Of a stretch of 64,000 nucleotides of DNA, positions 2,485 through 63,829 are shown one piece after another; the first letter of the stretch is position 1, and the number at the start of each line of letters is the position of its first letter. Under the pieces are notes generated by a model that saw only the letters and a program-made list of their open reading frames with translations, was not told where the DNA came from and did no database searches. The DNA comes from Escherichia coli. GTDB taxonomy: Bacteria > Pseudomonadota > Gammaproteobacteria > Enterobacterales > Enterobacteriaceae. Location: assembly GCF_013315695.1 (NCBI RefSeq), contig NZ_CP054353.1; one strand, given 5' to 3'. Both the position numbers and the translations under genes were made by a program.

Positions 2485-3279
2485 TTATTGACCATTGTCG
2501 CCTTCGCGGGTTAGCCACCAGGCTCCCAGGATCGGCAAGGTTGTTACCAACATAACCAGCAGTGCCACGACGTTGGTTACCGGTACATCACGTGGTCGCC
2601 CAAGCTGATTGAGTAACCACAACGGTAACGTTCGTTCATGACCTGCCGTAAAAGTCGTAACGATGATTTCATCGAACGACAAAGCAAACGCCAGCATTCC
2701 TCCTGCCAGTAGCGCCGAACTGAGATTCGGCAACACTACGTAGCGGAAGGTTTGCCAGCCATTGGCCCCAAGATCCATTGACGCCTCAACCAGACTCCAC
2801 GAGGTGCGGCGAAAACGGGCGATGACATTGTTAAACACCACCACTACGCAAAAAGTCGCATGGCCGACCACGATGGTGAAAAATCCCGGCTCCAGATTGA
2901 TGGTTTTAAAGGCGGTTAATAGCGCCAGACCAGTGACAATGCCCGGCAGCGCAATGGGCAGCAGCAGTAACAGCGAAATGGCATTTTTGCCGAAAAAGTC
3001 TCGTCGCCACAGCGCAGCAGCTGCCAGCGTCCCTAACACCAGCGCGATTAATGTCGCCAGCGCTGCCACTTTAAGTGACAGTGTCACGGAATCAAGAATA
3101 TCACTACGCTGTGCTGCCACGCTAAACCAGCGCAGCGTCAGGCCTTGCGGTGGAAAACTAAACGCCGCATCTTCAGTGTTAAATGCATAGGCGGCGATAA
3201 TCAGGATAGGAAAATGTAGGAAAACTACGCCGCCCCAGGCCGCCAGTTTGAGGAAAAACGGTGCGCGTTCAGAGTGCAT
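2485..3279 (-). CDS. ydcV: ABC transporter permease (264 aa)
   Basis: Multi-pass membrane ORF in ydcSTUV operon order. Confidence 0.85.
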
Positions 3280-19044: not shown

Positions 19045-20388
19045 TTAAAGCAAACCACAGCGACGTTTACTGCGTTCTTCCGCTTCCTGATAAAGCTGGA
19101 ACTCATCCAAAACCGGGCAGCCCAACGCCTGCTCAAATGCTTCGCGACTGGCATTACCGTGACTGCGTGCCTGCGTTTCATTACCCAGATTTGACTGGAA
19201 GATCCCCGCCGCGCTAACAGGCAAGAAATCTTCATAGGTAATGGGTTGCGCCACTACCCAACCACGTTCAATTAAGGGCTGTGGATCGTCTCCGGGATGA
19301 ATCGCCTGACGATGCGCCTCACCTGAAGGCGTCAGACGGTACCGGAACCATGCCAACCCTTGCTGACGCATTAAAAACTCACTGTCAGGAAAAGTGCGGA
19401 AGGTTTCCTGTAAATGCATTTGGTGAGTGAGATTATCCTGCCCGGTTCCAGCGTTCCGCAGTAGATCATCATACAGTTGTCGTCCTTTCGGCGTTAATGC
19501 CACGCCACGCTGCTCTATTTCACCAAAGCGCGCGGTATGCGTGCCCTGTTTCTGCCCTGCAAACAACACCGTCTCTTCCAGTGCTTTAAAGCTGGTCTGG
19601 CGTAGTAAAATAGGTACCTCGCGGCGCGGCGGCCCTTCGATCAGAATTTTGGGTTCAATCCCGCATTCAGGCATCATCGACTGCACCCGGTCAATATCCA
19701 GCGTACGTGGCGTCAGGTGGTTGATATGGCATCCAGGAAAACAGACCACATCAGCAATCAACCGATGTTCGTTGTGCAAGGCGCGATAGGTTTCTTCATC
19801 TACCGTTGCTGACTGGTGCCAACGAAACGTTTCCAGGGCTTCCTGCACAAACTCCTGTGCCTGTGTTTCGTTAAAACCGCCCCGCTGCTCATACTCCTCT
19901 AACAGTTGTCGACAACGTGGGGTGAAGATATCGCGCTGACGCAGAATCTCCGCCGCTTTCTGGCGCAAAAATTCGTTCTCGATAAGCTCAAGGCGGAGTA
20001 ATGAGGTAAAAACGCGGAAGGGATTACGCGCCAGAGAAGCATCATCAATGGGCCGAAATGCTGTGGAATGTACCGGCACTCCCGCCTGCGAGAGATCGTA
20101 ATAGCTCACCGGGTACATCCCCATAATGGCAAACATCCGCCGAAGAGTAGCAAGCTCTTGTGCAGTCCCAACACGAATCGCCCCATGACGTTCAACATTC
20201 AGTCGCGCCAGCTCGTCTGCATTTACCATTTTTTCGTGCAGTTGAGGATTGTTTTCCAGCACAGCCAGATTCACATCAGCTACCAGTTCCAGCAGCGTGC
20301 CGTACTGCGGAACTTCTTGCTGGTACATGGCTGACATTGCCTGCGAAAACTGTTCCCGAATCTCATCCGCCGTGATGCTGTTCGCCAT
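19045..20388 (-). CDS. ydcJ: Uncharacterised protein YdcJ (447 aa)
   Basis: ORF and synteny. Confidence 0.8.
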   Translation of the reverse strand: MANSITADEIREQFSQAMSAMYQQEVPQYGTLLELVADVNLAVLENNPQLHEKMVNADELARLNVERHGAIRVGTAQELATLRRMFAIMGMYPVSYYDLSQAGVPVHSTAFRPIDDASLARNPFRVFTSLLRLELIENEFLRQKAAEILRQRDIFTPRCRQLLEEYEQRGGFNETQAQEFVQEALETFRWHQSATVDEETYRALHNEHRLIADVVCFPGCHINHLTPRTLDIDRVQSMMPECGIEPKILIEGPPRREVPILLRQTSFKALEETVLFAGQKQGTHTARFGEIEQRGVALTPKGRQLYDDLLRNAGTGQDNLTHQMHLQETFRTFPDSEFLMRQQGLAWFRYRLTPSGEAHRQAIHPGDDPQPLIERGWVVAQPITYEDFLPVSAAGIFQSNLGNETQARSHGNASREAFEQALGCPVLDEFQLYQEAEERSKRRCGLL

Positions 20389-24161: not shown

Positions 24162-24225
24162 CTTCCGATGTAGGCCCGTATTCTTCGCCTGTACCACGGG
24201 TCGGTTTTAGTACAGGCGTTTTCTT
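24162..24225 (+). ncRNA. rydC: RydC small RNA (pseudoknot sRNA)
   Basis: CTTCCGATGTAGGCCCGTATTCTTCGCCTGTACCACGGGTCGGTTTTAGTACAGGCGTTTTCTT between ydcA and cybB, matching my recollection of RydC. Confidence 0.6.
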
Positions 24226-24235
24226 TAAATATCCT

Positions 24236-24766
24236 TCAGGAACGTTTACGCGGCATCATGCGTAGAAGTGTGTTGTCCTTCCAGAAATAGTGGTGTGCCA
24301 GTGCAGCCGCAGCGTGCAACCCGATGACAAAATATCCCAGATTCGCCAGCGTTTCATGCCACGACTTTAAGCTATCAACCCGTTCGAAATTGGCCTCTGA
24401 AGCGTAAGGCATCGTCATACCAAACGCAAACCACGGGTTGCCCCGGTTATACATCATCACCAAACCAATCACCGGCAGCGCAATAAACAGGAGATAAATC
24501 ACCAAATGGCCCAAATGCGCCAGTCCCGTCATCATCGGTTTTGGCTTAGGTATAATCGGCGGGGTTGGGTATTTCAGCCTTAACAAAAGACGAACCACCA
24601 TCAGTACGAGAATTGAGATGCCACAGGAAACATGAATCATGTTGATGAGGGGCCGATCGCTACGTGGGAAGAAACCACGAAACTCCATTGCGCAATACGC
24701 TGCGATAACCAGCAAAAAGACCAGCCAGTGAATGCTGATTTGTAACCTTGAGTATTTATTTTCCAT
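24236..24766 (-). CDS. cybB: Cytochrome b561 (176 aa)
   Basis: Start set at MENKYSRLQISIHWLVF; membrane protein. Confidence 0.9.
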   Translation of the reverse strand: MENKYSRLQISIHWLVFLLVIAAYCAMEFRGFFPRSDRPLINMIHVSCGISILVLMVVRLLLRLKYPTPPIIPKPKPMMTGLAHLGHLVIYLLFIALPVIGLVMMYNRGNPWFAFGMTMPYASEANFERVDSLKSWHETLANLGYFVIGLHAAAALAHHYFWKDNTLLRMMPRKRS

Positions 24767-51484: not shown

Positions 51485-51516
51485 GTTCTAATTTTGCTCA
51501 CTATAGGTACTAAATT

Positions 51517-52431
51517 ATGTACTCAATAAAAAAAGTAACCATGCTCTTGGGGTGCCTCGCCCTCACCTGCTCGATCGCATTTCAGGCGAGTGCAACTGAA
51601 AAATTCAAGGTCATTACAACATTTACCATCATCGCAGATATGGCCAAAAACGTGGCTGGAGATGCTGCAGAAGTCTCATCCATAACCAAGCCCGGTGCAG
51701 AAATTCATGAGTATCAGCCTACCCCTGGCGATATTAAACGTGCGCAGGAGGCACAACTGATTCTCGCCAATGGTATGAATCTGGAATTGTGGTTCCAACG
51801 CTTTTACCAGCATCTTAATGGGGTTCCAGAAGTAATTGTCTCTTCGGGTGTGACGCCAGTAGGGATCACTGAAGGCCCCTATGAGGGCAAACCTAACCCC
51901 CATGCCTGGATGTCGCCAGATAATGCTCTGATTTACGTCGATAATATTCGTGATGCGTTGATAAAATACGATCCGGCAAATGCACAAACCTACCAACGTA
52001 ATGCCGATACTTATAAAGCCAAGATTACCCAAACCCTTGCCCCCCTGCGTAAGCAGATTGCTGAACTCCCTGAGAATCAGCGATGGATGGTCACCAGTGA
52101 AGGGGCTTTTTCTTATCTCGCACGCGATTTGGGGCTAAAAGAGCTTTATCTGTGGCCGATTAATGCCGATCAACAAGGCACGCCGCAGCAGGTACGTAAG
52201 GTTGTTGATATGGTGAAGAAAAATCATATCCCGGCAGTCTTTAGCGAGAGTACGATTTCCGATAAACCAGCGCGTCAGGTTGCGCGTGAAACCGGCGCGC
52301 ACTACGGCGGTGTACTCTATGTCGATTCCCTGAGCACAGAAAACGGCCCGGTACCTACGTATATCGACCTTCTGAAGGTTACTACCAGTACGCTGGTACA
52401 GGGAATTAAAGCCGGGAAAAGGGAGAAATAA
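51517..52431 (+). CDS. sitA: Periplasmic Mn/Fe-binding protein of Sit ABC transporter (304 aa)
   Basis: Signal peptide plus metal-binding lipoprotein-9-like sequence; first gene of a four-gene transporter operon. Confidence 0.85.
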
Positions 52432-53258
52432 TGATGCAATCTGCGGGCATTGTCGTTAATGATGTTACTGTCACCTGGCGTAACGGGCACACAGCACTGC
52501 GCGATGCATCCTTCACAGTACCAAGTGGATCTATTGCCGCTCTGGTTGGGGTAAACGGTTCCGGAAAATCGACGTTGTTTAAAGCGATTATGGGATTTGT
52601 GCGTCTGACCAGCGGAAAGATATCTGTTCTGGGTATTCCCACGCGACAGGCGCTACAGAAAAACCTGGTTGCCTACGTCCCTCAGTCAGAAGAGGTTGAC
52701 TGGTCATTTCCTGTACTAGTGGAAGATGTGGTGATGATGGGCCGCTATGGGCACATGGGTATGTTGCGTATAGCCAAAAAGAGGGATCGTCAGATTGTCA
52801 CCGATGCGCTGGAACGTGTCGATATGGTGGATTTTCGCCATCGACAAATCGGCGAGCTTTCCGGTGGACAAAAGAAACGCGTCTTTCTGGCGAGAGCGAT
52901 TGCACAGCAGGGTGATGTGATCCTGCTGGATGAACCTTTTACCGGCGTTGATGTGAAAACCGAAGCGAAAATCATCAGCCTGTTGAGGGAGTTACGCGCG
53001 GAAGGCAAGACGATGCTTGTCTCAACGCACAATCTCGGCTCAGTCACGACATTTTGCGATTATACGGTCATGGTCAAAGGCACCGTCCTGGCAAGCGGGC
53101 CGACAGACACCACTTTTACAGCCGAGAACCTGGAGCTGGCTTTTAGCGGCGTACTGCGCCATGTCACACTTAACGCCTCGGAAGAAAGCATTATTACTGA
53201 CGATGAACACCCTTTTGTGGCACATCGACCGTCAGCGGTGCAGAGGGAAGCAAGATGA
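52431..53258 (+). CDS. sitB: Sit transporter ATP-binding protein (275 aa)
   Basis: Walker [10 protein letters not shown], signature LSGGQKKR, Walker B ILLDEP. Confidence 0.85.
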
Positions 53259-54112
53259 ACGTGCTACTGGAACCCTTCAGCTATGAATATATGCTCAATG
53301 CGATGTGGGTCTCGGCGATGGTCGGCGGTCTCTGCGCTTTCCTGTCATGCTATCTGATGCTAAAAGGCTGGTCGCTGATTGGCGATGCGCTGTCGCACTC
53401 TATTGTCCCGGGTGTTGCGGGGGCATATATGCTGGGGCTTCCGTTTTCTCTGGGAGCCTTCTTTTCCGGCGGACTGGCAGCGGGCAGCATGCTGTTTCTT
53501 AACCAACGCACTCGCTTAAAAGAAGATGCCATCATCGGCCTGATCTTCTCCTCCTTTTTTGGCCTGGGGCTGTTTATGGTGTCATTGAACCCGACATCCG
53601 TGAACATTCAGACCATCGTCCTAGGCAATATTCTGGCAATCGATCCGGCGGATATCCTGCAACTCACTATCATTGGCATTCTCTCGATCATCGTGCTTTT
53701 TTTCAAATGGAAAGATCTTATGGTGACCTTTTTCGACGAGAATCACGCCCGTGCTATTGGATTGCATCCGGGCAGATTAAAAATCCTCTTCTTCACCCTG
53801 CTGTCGGTTTCGACCGTTGCGGCGCTGCAAACGGTTGGTGCCTTTCTGGTGATCTGTCTGGTGGTGACTCCCGGTGCAACAGCATGGTTGTTAACCGATC
53901 GTTTTCCCCGCCTGCTCATAATTGCTGTAACTATTGGCAGTGTAACCAGTTTCCTCGGCGCGTGGGTCAGTTACTTTCTGGACGGCGCGACAGGTGGAAT
54001 CATCGTGGTGGCGCAGACACTGCTGTTTCTTTTAGCATTTGTATTTGCGCCCACCCATGGGCTTTTGGCAAATCGTCGGCGTGCGCATAAAGCGCTGGAG
54101 GATCGCTCATGA
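53255..54112 (+). CDS. sitC: Sit transporter permease (285 aa)
   Basis: Multi-pass membrane ORF overlapping sitB end. Confidence 0.85.
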
Positions 54113-54966
54113 TGGCATTATTACTGGAGCCACTGCAGTTCACCTTTATGAGTCACGCACTGCTGATTTCACTGGTAGTTTCCATACCCTGTGCGCTGCT
54201 GTCGGTCTTTCTGGTCCTGAAAGGTTGGGCACTGATGGGTGACGCGATGAGTCATGCGGTTTTTCCTGGCATCGTGCTTGCCTGGATTCTGGGGTTACCT
54301 CTGGCTACAGGGGCATTTATCGCCGGAGTATTCTGCGCGGTGGCGACGGGATACCTGAAAGACAACAGCCGAATCAAGCAAGATACAGTGATGGGGATTG
54401 TTTTTTCTGGCATGTTTGCCGCAGGTCTGATCTTGTATATTGCAGTCAAACCAGACATACATCTTGACCATATTCTTTTCGGCGACATGCTCGGGGTAAC
54501 CATCGGCGATATAATCCAGACGATGATTATTGCCGGGCTGGTTACACTTGTTATTAGCGTAAAATGGCGGGATTTTTTGCTGTTCAGCTTTGATTATCAA
54601 CAGGCGCAGGTAAGCGGTTTGCATACGCGATGGCTGCATTATGGGCTGCTGTGCATGGTTTCCCTGACCATTGTGGCGACGCTGAAAGCAGTAGGTATCA
54701 TTCTCTCCATTTCTCTGCTCATTGCGCCTGGCGCCATTGCGGTACTCCTGACACAACGCTTTCATATTGCACTCCTACTGGCGACTGGCATATCGGTAAT
54801 AGTCTCAATGACTGGTGTTTGGCTGTCCTTTTTTATCGACAGCGCACCCGCTCCGACGATTGTCGTCTTATTCGCGGTTGTGTTCATCATGACGTTTACC
54901 GTTATCAGTTTCAACGCACGCACAAAGGGAAACGCTCATAGACAGGATCTGTTATCCCCCAATTAG
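54109..54966 (+). CDS. sitD: Sit transporter permease (285 aa)
   Basis: Multi-pass membrane ORF overlapping sitC end. Confidence 0.85.
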   Translation: MMALLLEPLQFTFMSHALLISLVVSIPCALLSVFLVLKGWALMGDAMSHAVFPGIVLAWILGLPLATGAFIAGVFCAVATGYLKDNSRIKQDTVMGIVFSGMFAAGLILYIAVKPDIHLDHILFGDMLGVTIGDIIQTMIIAGLVTLVISVKWRDFLLFSFDYQQAQVSGLHTRWLHYGLLCMVSLTIVATLKAVGIILSISLLIAPGAIAVLLTQRFHIALLLATGISVIVSMTGVWLSFFIDSAPAPTIVVLFAVVFIMTFTVISFNARTKGNAHRQDLLSPN

Positions 54967-55417
54967 CACAACATCCGAGGGCAGCATTGTCCGCTAGTAC
55001 ACTGCAGTCCAGAAAGTCATGGGCGGACGTTGGGAGGAGGCGCTAATCCTTTCATACAAAAAATATGTAAAATCAATAACGGCTGTAAATCATTCAATAC
55101 TCGCACTATCGGAAGTTCACCAGCCAGCCGCAGCACGTTCTTGCATACGACGTGTCTGCGGTTTCAACTTCACCAGTCCACCAATCACGATGGACAGTGC
55201 CAAGACAGCACTAGCAAAAACAGGAAATTAGCAGTCTCAGCAGAACACCGACCAGACGGTGAAGAAACAAAAAAGGATACGCAAAGGGGCCGCAGTTCCC
55301 GATTGATAAAAAAGCCAGCTTATGCGCTTTTTTTTCATGTATTATTAAGTATTGGTTAGCGTCTTTTTAATCAGAACTTTAAAGACAAGCCATTTGTAAG
55401 AAAACCGACAGATTCGG

Positions 55418-56233
55418 TTGACAAGCAGGAGTAATACTTTGGACATAAGAAAAGATTTGGAATCAGTAGCCCAATATATAAGTAGACTGTTATCGATAGG
55501 GTACGAATTTAGCCGTTTTGATAAAGACTGGGTCCATTTAAAAAATGAAGAGGATTTTCGTTTTATTTCAAGAATACCATTTGCAACACGGAATAAAGTG
55601 GAAGCAGTATATGCGGAAGGCAGAGATATGGCACTTTATATGTCTGATGAGTTACTATCCATTAATAGTGATTTCAGTAAATTTCCAACGTTGACAGCTA
55701 TTATCGAAAGATTCAAGGACACTTGGGTTTATGGTAATTATGATTCGGAAGTGCCAAATATAGCTAAAAAAACATGCGAAGAAAATGCAGTTCAGCTTTG
55801 GTCTGTAGAACAGATGTGTTCCTTATTCAAAAAGCAAGAACAACTATTAGCAGCAGTACGTATCACATTGCAGATGCTACAAGATAGTGACCTATACAAG
55901 ATGGAGAATGGTTTACCTCTTATGAAACAAGAAGCTAATATTCATGTCAGTGGAATTTCCGGTTCTAGTATCAATATACATTCTTCAGGTGCTACGGCAA
56001 CTACTACGACAAATTATAATGAGCCCACAATATTTAATGAAATGATTGAGGCAATAAAATCGAAAAACTTTGATGGCGCGACAGAATCACACCTTATAGA
56101 TAATGTACAGGCACTGGCAGCCAGTCACCAAAGCGGCTGTTTTAAAGAAGCATATAAGGACTTTATTAATAATGTATCTGCACACATTACAGTATTTACT
56201 CCATTTCTTGCTGGCATATCATCTTTACTATAA
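55418..56233 (+). CDS. Hypothetical protein, AT-rich orphan ORF (271 codons from TTG; a TTG at 55439 has better Shine-Dalgarno spacing)
   Basis: Long open frame in a visibly low-GC segment; AGGAG at 55427..55431; no family recognised; Ser/Thr-rich linker SGISGSSINIHSSGATATTTTN. Confidence 0.55.
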   Translation: MTSRSNTLDIRKDLESVAQYISRLLSIGYEFSRFDKDWVHLKNEEDFRFISRIPFATRNKVEAVYAEGRDMALYMSDELLSINSDFSKFPTLTAIIERFKDTWVYGNYDSEVPNIAKKTCEENAVQLWSVEQMCSLFKKQEQLLAAVRITLQMLQDSDLYKMENGLPLMKQEANIHVSGISGSSINIHSSGATATTTTNYNEPTIFNEMIEAIKSKNFDGATESHLIDNVQALAASHQSGCFKEAYKDFINNVSAHITVFTPFLAGISSLL

Positions 56234-56778
56234 AATAAGTGACAGATACATTAATACATAACGAAAAATCTTTTTAGCTACTCATTCATATCAATAGTGC
56301 CCTACCATAGGGCACATTATTCGTGGAACTCGTTTATGACAAAAGAATTTTGATGGTCTGCCTGATGCAACAGATATAATTCTGGGAGTGTTGAGTAAGA
56401 GTATTCACCGGCGCTCAACACAAATGCCAGCAAGCACGAGAAAGAGCAGGTAAGCCTGAGTGTTCAGGAAATGTTTGAAAAGGCTAATATGTGGCTGGTT
56501 TCAGATTAAACGCCTTGAACCGTCATATTACTTAAGTACAATCCGCCTAGACTAGCAATCATTCAATAGTAGCACTATCGAGCGCTCGCCAGTCGAGCGC
56601 AATCATGCTCCTTGCATACGGCGTGCAGCATATCACAAAACGATTACGCCATGACGGACTGCAGGCTACTCAATATCTGGCTCGATTAGCGTATTGGCAT
56701 GATTTAACAGACCCCGGCGCTTATTCCCAGCAACCTGAAGCGGCACCTCTTCCTGTGTTGCGTTTACAACTCCCTTTT

Positions 56779-57087
56779 TCACCCACGATTAACCAACAGC
56801 CAGACCAGCAGACAAGCCACCACCGGCACAGAAAAATCCATCAGGCTTGCCACATCCCACACGCGCGGATCAAAACCACCCCACCACGGCATATTCATAC
56901 GCTTGCCATGCCCGAACATTTCAATCCAGCGATATTCTGCCTGGGTATGTTCACGAGCAATGAAGAACGTACAACCGGCTATCGCCCCGTAAGCCCAGTT
57001 TCCGGTAAAAAGACCAACCAGTACCTGCGCAGCCACAGCACAAAGTGCATGAAGGAAAGGTGTTATATCCATTTTCATCCTACCCAA
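56779..57087 (-). CDS. Hypothetical small membrane protein (102 aa; may start at MKMDITPF, 57075)
   Basis: Two hydrophobic segments (AVAAQVLVGLF..., VPVVACLLVWLLV); overlapping plus-strand 161-aa ORF is low-complexity. Confidence 0.5.
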   Translation of the reverse strand: MGRMKMDITPFLHALCAVAAQVLVGLFTGNWAYGAIAGCTFFIAREHTQAEYRWIEMFGHGKRMNMPWWGGFDPRVWDVASLMDFSVPVVACLLVWLLVNRG

Positions 57088-57148
57088 TAAAACGAGGCGC
57101 TCGGCCCCTTAATATTATTTAGACGCAAGCGTCGGTAATGACTCCAAC

Positions 57149-57652
57149 TTATTGATAGTGTTTTATGTTCAGATAATGCCCGATGACTTTGTCATGCAGC
57201 TCCACCGATTTTGAGAACGACAGCGACTTCCGTCCCAGCCGTGCCAGGTGCTGCCTCAGATTCAGGTTATGCCGCTCAATTCGCTGCGTATATCGCTTGC
57301 TGATTACGTGCAGCTTTCCCTTCAGGCGGGATTCATACAGCGGCCAGCCATCCGTCATCCATATCACCACGTCAAAGGGTGACAGCAGGCTCATAAGACG
57401 CCCCAGCGTCGCCATAGTGCGTTCACCGAATACGTGCGCAACAACCGTCTTCCGGAGCCTGTCATACGCGTAAAACAGCCAGCGCTGGCGCGATTTAGCC
57501 CCGACATAGCCCCACTGTTCGTCCATTTCCGCGCAGACGATGACGTCACTGCCCGGCTGTATGCGCGAGGTTACCGACTGCGGCCTGAGTTTTTTAAGTG
57601 ACGTAAAATCGTGTTGAGGCCAACGCCCATAATGCGGGCTGTTGCCCGGCAT
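57149..57652 (-). CDS. insB: IS1 InsB reading frame
   Basis: Translation identical to copy 1 InsB. Confidence 0.9.
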
Positions 57653-57846
57653 CCAACGCCATTCATGGCCATATCAATGATTTTCTGGTGCGTACCGGGT
57701 TGAGAAGCGGTGTAAGTGAACTGCAGTTGCCATGTTTTACGGCAGTGAGAGCAGAGATAGCGCTGATGTCCGGCGGTGCTTTTGCCGTTACGCACCACCC
57801 CGTCAGTAGCTGAACAGGAGGGACAGCTGATAGAAACAGAAGCCAC
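57571..57846 (-). CDS. insA: IS1 InsA
   Basis: Translation identical to copy 1 InsA. Confidence 0.9.
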
Positions 57847-58711: not shown

Positions 58712-59151
58712 ATCAATAACTCTCAACTGTAAGGGTATTGAAATGTTAACACAAGCTCTCGCTGTAGGGGTATAGCCGAGACCACCGAAGCCCGGAGGTG
58801 GTGAAATAAAACCGGGCACAACACGAAGGCGCATTTCCGATATCCATAAAGAGTCGGTCTTGTCTGTTAAATTTAAATGGTGGGAGTGCGCCTCCGGTTG
58901 TAAATAACGACATTGCTGTGTGTAGTCCTGGCGGCATCAGTTTTTTCTTGAAGTTCGGCTGATGTCCGCCCTTTTTTAAGTGAATTTTGTGATGCGGTGA
59001 ATGCGGCTAAGCGCACGTGGCACAGTTAAAAGTCATGTTAGTCCTTATTGGTTTGGGTGGGAAAGCCGACTGTAATTGTTAACTGGTTGCAGTCACCTGG
59101 AGGCACCAGGCACCGCATCAACAAAGTTCATTTGTAAAAATGGAGATAATT

Positions 59152-59373
59152 ATGATTGCACATCACTTCGGAACTGATGAAATACCACGTCAGTGTGTGA
59201 CTCCTGGCGATTATGTTCTTCATGAAGGCCGGACATATATTGCCTCGGCAAACAATATTAAAAAGCGAAAACTATATATTCGTAACCTGACCACAAAAAC
59301 ATGCATTACTGACCGCATGATTAAAGTCTTCCTCGGTCGTGATGGTTTACCTGTAAAGGCGGAGTCATGGTGA
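59152..59373 (+). CDS. kilR: Cell-division inhibitor KilR, Rac prophage (73 aa)
   Basis: [38 protein letters not shown]... Confidence 0.8.
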
Positions 59374-63453: not shown

Positions 63454-63648
63454 ATGAGATATGACAATGTTAAACCATGTCCATTTTGTGGTTGTCCATC
63501 AGTAACGGTGAAAGTCATTTCAGGATATTACCGAGCGAAGTGTAACGGATGCGAATCCCGAACCGGTTATGGTGGAAGTGAAAAAGAAGCACTCGAAAGA
63601 TGGAATAAACGAACCACTGGAAATAATAACGGAGGTGTTCATGTATAA
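63454..63648 (+). CDS. ralR: Restriction alleviation protein RalR/Lar (64 aa)
   Basis: Start set at MRYDNVKPCPFCGCPSVTVKV; Cys-rich motif. Confidence 0.7.
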   Translation: MRYDNVKPCPFCGCPSVTVKVISGYYRAKCNGCESRTGYGGSEKEALERWNKRTTGNNNGGVHV

Positions 63649-63829
63649 AATTACCGCCACTATTGAAAAGGAAGGTGGCACTCCTACTAACTGGACAAGA
63701 TATTCAAAATCTAAACTAACGAAATCAGAATGCGAAAAAATGCTCTCAGGTAAAAAAGAAGCAGGCGTTTCCAGAGAGCAGAAAGTAAAACTGATAAATT
63801 TTAATTGCGAGAAACTTCAGTCCTCGTGA
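63641..63829 (+). CDS. ydaC: Rac prophage protein YdaC (62 aa)
   Basis: Start set at MYKITATIEKEGGTPTNW, overlapping ralR stop. Confidence 0.6.
   Translation: MYKITATIEKEGGTPTNWTRYSKSKLTKSECEKMLSGKKEAGVSREQKVKLINFNCEKLQSS

Follow-up and report, generated by a model that had tools for sequence, protein, structure and literature searches.

Organization of the locus

The stretch of DNA analysed here (the window, 64,000 nt of an Escherichia coli genome, contig NZ_CP054353.1) carries, in this order, ompN, uspF and sitABCD with sitD ending at position 54966, a region with two imperfect direct repeats of about 100 nt, the gene of a 97-amino-acid (aa) phage protein, the insertion sequence IS1A, and the left half of a Rac-like prophage, of which ydaF, sieB, kilR, racC, recE and the RalA small RNA (sRNA) lie to the right of IS1A. 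The two repeats, named E1 and E2, enclose an open reading frame (ORF) of 264 aa and a dinI pseudogene, and the modules are stacked in the order sitABCD, E1, ORF with dinI pseudogene, E2, and a remnant of the tail fibre assembly gene tfa. IS1A joins this sit and cargo end to the left half of the Rac-like prophage. An identical locus is present in strain MSB1_4I (locus L001; the loci compared are given with L numbers), and its RefSeq labels were carried over to the window. We interpret the repeats as two independent copies of a conserved junction element of lambdoid phages, placed next to each other by ordinary prophage mosaicism with stacked cargo, and assign this reading a probability of roughly 0.72.

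An initial annotation had described imperfect direct repeats around an AT-rich orphan ORF. The repeats are confirmed: gapped blastn of the two flanks of the ORF aligns 55088-55156 with 56557-56625 at 52 of 69 positions (75%, 2 gaps, E=1e-7), all other flank-to-flank matches having E-values of at least 0.37, and a repeat search recovers 55088-55132 with 56557-56601 (45 nt, 76%) and 55140-55158 with 56611-56629 (19 nt, 74%). The 24-nt core pattern, with up to three mismatches and on both strands of the 64 kb, matches at the two repeat sites only (chance expectation 0.04; two matches in 0 of 100 shuffles). Chance similarity is excluded. A covariance model (R1), made from around 100 related copies of the element, likewise yields two strong sites only, 55063-55177 (122.8 bits) and 56532-56645 (76.4 bits), and the homology thus reaches about 25 nt further 5' than the repeats as first described.

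The ORF also exists as claimed (55418-56233, with the RefSeq start at ATG 55439), and its region is indeed AT-rich (GC 0.33-0.38 versus 0.44-0.55 in the flanks); the fall in GC that marks the cargo does not coincide with the repeat and starts around 150 nt to the right of E1. With 85 homologues found, however, the ORF is no orphan, and the repeats do not flank the ORF alone but also the frameshifted dinI-like pseudogene at 56323-56509. No integrase and no phage genes were found in the 1.4 kb between E1 and E2. An inverted repeat at the GC borders of the ORF (55317-55344 and 56252-56279) was considered and rejected; with 20 of 28 complementary positions, it is no better than 15 other chance-level pairs in 4 kb.

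Distribution and position of the element

By sensitive blastn, the element is found in 5412 of 5426 complete E. coli genomes, at 19201 places (median 3, maximum 11 per genome), and phage records with the element number 195, among them lambda, HK97 and phi80. In IMG/VR, 120 loci were retrieved by a pattern scan, and their cores comprise 92 different variants. Among species representatives, Escherichia, Citrobacter and one Raoultella metagenome-assembled genome contain the exact core; a few very short contigs of other taxa that contain it are probably contaminants. The two places of the element in PhiR42_1 proved to be an artefact of a terminally redundant record.

Concerning its position, a full copy lies between ea31 and ea47 in lambda (24162-24271), directly after the annotated sib site and between int-attP and tfa in HK97, and between dinI and nleC in Stx and effector phages, while in phi80 it takes up the whole space that separates dinL/dinI from the convergent tail fibre gene. 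In other prophages, an intact dinI-like gene precedes the element, which starts at the stop codon of that gene, at the prophage end adjoining attR. In the window, as in many phages, it has attR/dinI on one side and the tail fibre genes on the other. Int and attP are within about 200-300 bp of the element in HK97 and in a Qin-like phage. The phages concerned differ in their integrases and attachment sites, which are unrelated to one another (lambda att, ydfJ, yecE, mlrA, prfC, dusA). A chromosomal copy is located in the ecpE-ykgJ spacer, where it matches E1 at 86.7% over 90 nt and reaches 108 bits with the covariance model, and K-12 contains a further copy at the end of Qin, adjoining ydfJ.

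Anatomy and predicted structure of the element

On the dinI-sense strand (+ in the window), the element consists of a stem P1, a near-invariant loop, and a hairpin P2 with a conserved loop of its own. P1 is a stem of 6-7 bp (GGCUGG / CCAGCC) enclosing the near-invariant loop of around 35 nt (AAUCAUUCAAUACUCGCACUAUCG...), and P2 is a G+C-rich hairpin of 11-12 bp (11-14 bp where its stem was assessed as a terminator) with the conserved 11-nt loop UCUUGCAUACG. In E1, P1 is formed by about 55081-55085 with 55121-55125, the loop includes 55088-55111, and P2 is formed by 55126-55139 with 55149-55163 and followed by the tail UUUCAACUU.

In a plain MAFFT alignment, pairing reaches 83% in the core of P1 and the inner part of P2, compared to 23-58% if the 3' partners are slid; in a model-based alignment of 106 copies, 90.7% of the cells are paired (23-53% in the slid controls), changes on both sides occur in 14 of 18 pairs, and none of 500 shuffles reaches the observed values. 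Among the P2 cells, GU is found 83 times versus AC 30 times, and at least five T occur in the 9 nt after P2 in 39 of 104 copies, versus a mirror-image A-run on the other side in 4 of 104. With this excess of GU and these one-sided T-runs, P2 looks like an RNA hairpin on the + strand, terminator-like in many copies. RNAfold z-scores amount to -3.52 for E1, -4.7 for the chromosomal copy, -2.9 for lambda and -0.79 for E2, and single-sequence folds recover both P1 and P2 in the first three, not in E2. The possibility that the element encodes a small peptide was rejected: the core is invariant without a third-position pattern, and the annotated antisense ORFs are wholly different between the two subfamilies described below.

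Scans with Rfam 15 (the 3' 14 kb of the window and three related loci) gave no family at the gathering threshold for the element; the only match there was CssrB (Shigella chromosomal sRNA B), on the strand opposite to P2 and with 22-29 bits against a threshold of 76. These weak CssrB matches recur at 55129-55191 (-) in the window, at 2563-2627 (-) in L007 and at 2566-2634 (-) in L130. Among the papers searched, none reports a small RNA at the 3' ends of dinI or in the ecpE-ykgJ spacer; EcsR2 is located in the neighbouring yagU-ykgJ spacer, and the preprint on the Pas sRNA contains no mention of dinI or of tail fibre genes.

Two subfamilies and the origin of E1 and E2

The copies fall into a subfamily A (GGAAAUCAUUC..., P2 CCGCAGCACGU...) and a subfamily B (GGCAAUCAUUC..., P2 CCGCAAUCAUGC...). 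Copies of type A are mostly situated behind dinI-like ORFs ending in DTWESADEWFVH, those of type B behind dinI-like ORFs ending in MFEEADMWLVSD, and from these subfamily-specific endings it follows that the element has co-diverged with the gene upstream. E1 is an intact, pure A-type copy, not a hybrid, with no dinI before it and with a lambda-type left flank; E2 is a B-type copy behind a decayed (frameshifted) B-type dinI. The two are 67-75% alike, and each of them is nearer to copies in other phages than to its partner. As they belong to different subfamilies, the 75% identity reflects old paralogy, not decay after a local duplication, and on the subfamily assignment E1 and E2 appear never to have been one sequence at this locus. 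The paired copies in L028, L079, L096 and L132 are likewise dissimilar (70-86%).

The 5' part of E2 is of type B with private changes. Its 3' arm is 4 nt short after GGCGUG and continues with CAGCAUAUCACAAAACGAU, the outer part of P2 being unpaired or broken, and runs into the subfamily-A-type right flank CATATCACAAAACGAT; the same flank follows the A-type copies adjoining tfa in PF9285 and L054 and also the partial copy between ea47 and tfa in lambda. An alignment of E2 to L139 contains a 4-nt gap, and E2 ranks 102nd of 103 full-length covariance-model matches. To judge from this composition, E2 is the footprint of a crossover inside the element, slightly out of register. At 56580-56600, four private substitutions of E2 create a perfect 7-bp hairpin (GCGCTCG-CCAGT-CGAGCGC) that other B copies do not possess; it might be a compensation for the broken P2, or chance.

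Alleles and mosaic junctions

The ORF is present in 104 of the 5426 E. coli genomes, always with at least 99% identity, and the whole arrangement from 54900 to 57150 in 103 of these 104. In other genomes with sit, the homology breaks off at one of two points, 55161, where P2 has its 3' end, or 54986, shortly behind sitD. The nearest single-element allele, PF9285, is organized as sitD, element, tfa remnant, 97-aa gene and tail fibre gene; it is identical to the window over 51500-54522, has 6 mismatches from there up to 55003 and 20 mismatches in 55041-55154, and differs by about 16-18% in the element and rightward, with around 84% identity on the tfa side. As PF9285 diverges from the element onward, mosaic joints at both edges of the element are found instead of a precise empty site, and an allele with one repeat copy and otherwise matching sequence, as expected for an inserted cassette, was not found among the single-copy alleles PF9285, EcPF14 and SW07164, all of which diverge from the element onward. 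The single-element alleles do not contain the ORF.

Among 129 copies, 19 clusters of left flanks and 44 clusters of right flanks occur in 65 combinations, and the element retains 76% identity even in cases where the similarity of both flanks has dropped to the baseline of about 55% for unrelated sequence. It forms a conserved island whose flanks are otherwise unrelated, with mosaic junctions at its edges.

Stacking is found elsewhere, too. L132 has the order dinI, element, DUF4760 gene, humD remnant, dinI, Panacea pair, element and tfa, and L028, L079 and L096 contain two copies each. In lambda, the full copy is on one side of ea47 and a partial copy, limited to P2, on the other. This partial copy, situated between ea47 and tfa (J02459; L006 4113-4215, and likewise L003 4650-4752), scores 29 bits and comprises no more than the P2 hairpin, after which CATATCACAAAACGAT follows; ea47 thus lies between two copies, one full and one partial, in a situation very similar to that of the ORF in the window. 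Cargo to the right of the element comprises ykgJ (cM8a, O104:H4), DUF4760 and the Panacea-domain pair (L132), ea47 (lambda), nleC (PPyecE), ynfT-ydfK-pin (Qin-like phages), an acetyltransferase (L096), and pairs of XRE and ImmA/IrrE proteins and a GIY-YIG-like protein (L028, L079). The cM8a prophage at mlrA (L142, 27691-28218 and 32809-33942), which also carries dinI-element-ykgJ, possesses further cargo in the form of sodC and a copy of ompC among its tail genes.

The cargo ORF and neighbouring features

The 85 homologues of the 264-aa ORF share about 31-76% identity with it and are found in Pseudomonas, Vibrio, Enterobacter, Serratia, Klebsiella and others. No Pfam, NCBIfam or PHROGs family was found for the ORF, Pfam (including AbiTii) gave no match in it or in its 38 aligned homologues, and PADLOC gave a single weak match (PDC-M14B, E=0.0017). 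The AlphaFold model (mean pLDDT 86) is all-helical, with two domains and a disordered Ser/Thr/Gly linker; a fold search of the PDB returned generic helical bundles only. In the AlphaFold database (AFDB), the N-terminal domain is found again in fusions with a restriction endonuclease and with an ADP-ribosyl cyclase of the TIR type, as well as in proteins that bear the name AbiTii, the link to AbiTii consisting of fold-level similarity to AFDB entries of that name (E=3e-8) and one UniRef name. A role in defence or abortive infection is a reasonable guess. The unit has the features of a moron, i.e., low GC, a hairpin (56297-56315), and absence from the single-element alleles.

An E. coli homologue with 58% identity is located in an island between yagU and paoA, close to yagU/ykgJ, together with a 613-aa reverse transcriptase and an SMEK_N protein (L133 1-8750, L134, L135); at its far edge, this island has a further copy of the element besides the one in ecpE-ykgJ.

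The features around the two copies are listed in Table 1. In the prfC-site prophage L132, a DUF4760 cargo gene comes after the stretch homologous to 55166-55316, which in the window terminates in an A/T-rich hairpin-like run. A tblastn search with DinI gave no match in the left flank of E1 (55013-55062). Concerning the hairpin behind the ORF, the total number of terminator-like sites in the scan is no higher than in shuffled sequence. RefSeq annotates a partial tfa at the place matching the tfa remnant in L139, L140 and L002, not in L001.

Table 1. Features in and around the two element copies; positions and strands are those of the window.
Feature	Position	Strand	Remarks and evidence
sitD	54109-54966	+	Last gene of sitABCD (iron/manganese transporter operon), leftward-transcribed cargo module left of E1; ORF list, RefSeq of L001
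Left flank of E1, lambda-type	55013-55062	+	Common to lambda (between ea31 and the element) and single-copy sit alleles; alignment, megablast matches start at 55013
E1, intact subfamily-A copy	55063-55165	+	Starts 96 nt after the sitD stop codon; covariance model, RNAfold, covariation
Conserved stretch right of E1, about 150 nt	55166-55316	+	88.5% match to the prfC-site prophage (L132), the match spanning 55067-55316
Cargo ORF, 264 aa	55439-56233	+	RefSeq start ATG 55439; 271 codons if TTG 55418 is taken as start
Terminator-like hairpin GTGCCCTACCATAGGGCAC	56297-56315	+	64 nt 3' of the stop codon of the cargo ORF; consensus scan
Frameshifted dinI-like pseudogene, subfamily-B type	56323-56509	+	C-terminus ...EMFEKANMWLVSD*; RefSeq of L001 (7424-7610)
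E2, degenerate hybrid copy	56532-56630	+	Starts 23 nt after the stop codon of the dinI pseudogene; covariance model, RNAfold, alignments
tfa remnant (3' end of tail fibre assembly gene)	56640-56770 (approximate)	-	Convergent with the cargo modules; about 84% homology to L139, L140, L002
97-aa conserved phage protein	56779-57072	-	Accompanies tail fibre genes; phrog_1443 E=7e-59; RefSeq
IS1A	57149-57846	-	In place of the tail fibre genes and most of the prophage; ORF list, RefSeq

A second copy of IS1A is situated upstream of ompN (L001 1-275), and in strain MS 196-1, which shares this cargo region, a tail fibre gene takes the place of IS1A. Further sRNA matches in the window, at 63647-63825 (-) and 58917-59159 (+), comprise a full-score match to the RalA antitoxin sRNA (225 bits) and matches resembling DicF (37.6 bits) and STnc100 (37.7 bits); the latter two are sub-threshold and lie between sieB and kilR of the Rac-like prophage.

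A published attachment site and the ecpE-ykgJ spacer

Nakamura et al. 2021 (PLoS Pathog, PMC8112680) described a 96-bp sequence, attB-in-PP_2, at the effector-gene end of lambda-like prophages, into which other lambda-like phages integrate. It is about 81% identical to the ykgJ/ecpE spacer, a homology that extends over 309 bp in phages such as Sp15 at mlrA and the nleC phages at yecE, and it is treated in that study as a chromosomal sequence that was captured by a few phages and used for integration. From its place and its homology, the element described here is very likely the same sequence.

In the ecpE-ykgJ spacer of E. coli BLK16 (L130 2320-2614), a frameshifted dinI-like remnant is found just upstream of the element (tblastn E=3e-6), and phages at yecE and mlrA carry dinI-element-ykgJ as cargo. 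Given this dinI remnant and the phage-borne dinI-element-ykgJ, the chromosomal copy may be a fossil prophage end, which suggests a transfer from phage to chromosome, the reverse of the direction proposed in PMC8112680. A prophage sitting in the ecpE-ykgJ spacer itself was looked for and rejected: in O104:H4 and cM8a, dinI-element-ykgJ is phage-borne, at yecE and mlrA, which fits a capture of ykgJ as cargo and does not demonstrate a use of attL/attR.

Interpretation of the repeat pair

As independent copies of a lambdoid junction element, E1 and E2 would have two roles. P2 on the dinI-sense strand would end leftward-transcribed accessory units before the convergent tail fibre genes, and the element, as almost all lambdoid prophages have a copy of it, would provide them with common homology for exchanging and stacking cargo modules; the exchange would proceed by homologous recombination or, in some phages, by integrases. 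In the window, the module of ORF and decayed dinI would have been joined to a resident element on the tfa side by a crossover inside P2, from which E2 would have emerged hybrid and structurally broken, and the sit operon would have been joined just 5' of E1. The initial annotation, partly right in its interpretation, had proposed a cassette inserted by recombination between related prophage sequences. The prophage nature of the repeats and their position at mosaic junctions agree with this, and so does the hybrid E2, from which the module of ORF and decayed dinI was joined by recombination inside the element; a duplication produced by the insertion is not supported, as each copy is tied to a different dinI-like family and the pairs at the four other loci are only 70-86% alike.

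Several points weigh against this reading or narrow it. All 104 carriers share one allele, and any order or mechanism proposed for the joins is conjectural. The identity with attB-in-PP_2 is drawn from location and ecpE-ykgJ homology and not from the published sequence, which is given as a figure only. The pair counts stem partly from a model-fitted alignment, and many copies are mutually related. The terminator and RNA roles draw on covariation, strand asymmetry and T-runs; P1 exhibits no GU/AC strand bias (27 versus 22) and could be a feature at the DNA level. The tail of E1 (UUUCAACUU) is weak, and the consensus terminator scan called neither E1 nor E2, the loop of E1, with 9-11 nt, exceeding the limit of the scan. 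Finally, a near-invariant loop of 24-35 nt is more than a terminator needs and may have some further function.

The hybrid E2 might also be explained by site-specific integration, with E1 and E2 as attL and attR of a lambda-like element that entered a prophage-borne att site and subsequently decayed to the ORF and the dinI remnant. A B-type left and A-type right part is what an attR of a type-B attP and a type-A attB would exhibit, such a phage normally has dinI at its right end, as is found beside E2, the element matches the ykgJ/ecpE spacer, and lambda-like phages inside prophages, by way of the 96-bp att homologous to this spacer, are reported (PMC8112680). This origin is nevertheless unlikely: E1 should then be the reciprocal hybrid (A left, B right) and is purely A and intact, the junction in E2 is 4 nt out of register, the 1.4-kb interval is devoid of an integrase or other phage gene, the stretch right of E1 recurs in a prophage that has other cargo and not an integrase, and the pairs at the four other loci are dissimilar paralogues enclosing cargo only. 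Of the suggestion of a duplicated attachment-like site, the attachment-like part has some basis in the homology to the ecpE-ykgJ spacer, the stated origin of attB-in-PP_2; two old subfamilies are not duplicates.

That strand bias is confined to P2 and not found in P1 leaves room for a third explanation, improbable in our estimate, by which the element is mainly a DNA-level site, P2 represents inverted core-type sites of an integrase or recombinase, and the covariation results from symmetric protein binding. The reported use as an att sequence, the distance of about 200-300 bp to int and attP in HK97 and the Qin-like phage, and an invariant loop that could be a protein-binding site would all agree with it. 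The excess of GU over AC in P2 (83 versus 30), T-runs after P2 on one strand only, the position at the stop codon of dinI-like genes and the co-divergence with dinI would not, and one cognate recombinase is unlikely for phages with unrelated integrases and att sites.

A local (target-site or tandem) duplication at the insertion of the ORF, since diverged to 75%, or mere chance, would suit the direct orientation and the bracketed AT-rich gene, and is nonetheless very improbable indeed, as chance is excluded, the subfamily assignment already refutes a duplication, and an ORF with at least 99% identity in 104 carriers implies a recent assembly, in which 25% divergence in place is impossible.

Wider meaning

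Read as junction elements, the two copies in the window show where one accessory module stops and the next begins, sit, a defence-like gene and a dead dinI being stacked where a decayed Rac-like prophage has its attR-side end. They do not represent a novel type of mobile cassette, and the ORF occupies an ordinary prophage cargo slot. The slots delimited by the element hold type III secretion system (T3SS) effectors (nleC), toxin-antitoxin and defence-like genes, ykgJ, ea47 of lambda, and the sit transporter. As it delimits cargo slots in many phages, the element could serve to find prophage cargo systematically.

A broader and more speculative proposal, which we consider less likely than not, is that the element is an unrecognised structured non-coding RNA (P1, 35-nt loop, P2) derived from leftward prophage transcripts, those of dinI-like genes among them, at their 3' end, with a function of its own, and in addition a universal cargo linker of lambdoid prophages, the ecpE-ykgJ copy being a fossil prophage end. 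Its function might then be that of a protein-binding or base-pairing 3'-UTR (3' untranslated region) RNA, or of a retroregulatory site. If this holds, almost all E. coli genomes, and the b region of phage lambda as well, contain such a structured RNA. If the covarying structure and the invariant loop reflect a function in RNA or in protein binding, they would constitute an overlooked feature of very well-studied phages, lambda included.

Comparison with known systems

The element is most similar to attB-in-PP_2, with which it shares a length of around 100 nt, the position at the cargo end of lambda-like prophages and the homology to the ykgJ/ecpE spacer; two records of that study, PPyecE_EH1910 (with dinI and nleC annotated) and Stx2_12E129_yecE, carry the element. 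Despite this similarity, there are clear differences: hardly any E. coli genome is without the element described here, which lambda, HK97 and phi80 possess as well, it is linked to the 3' ends of dinI and has covarying stems, and the copies in the window enclose an ORF and a dinI pseudogene with neither an integrated phage nor an integrase.

Concerning morons and the conserved boundary sequences of lambdoid phages, reportedly described by Hendrix, Juhala, Clark and colleagues, the locus corresponds in having an extra gene of deviant GC between phage sequences near the tail fibre genes, terminator-like hairpins, and mosaic joints at module borders. It differs in its border, which is formed by a single defined element, structured and about 100 nt long, whose core is near-invariant across many phage types, and not by mere homology at gene ends.

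The sib/tI region of lambda is likewise a hairpin element on the leftward strand just beyond int-attP, and in HK97 the element directly follows sib; the sequence, however, is another, and in lambda itself the element is situated 3 kb away, between ea31 and ea47. Equally to 3'-UTR-derived sRNAs, the element exhibits a conserved single-stranded stretch upstream of a terminator-like hairpin at a gene end, whereas it belongs to no Rfam family, has many copies with no good U-run, and is known here from its sequence.

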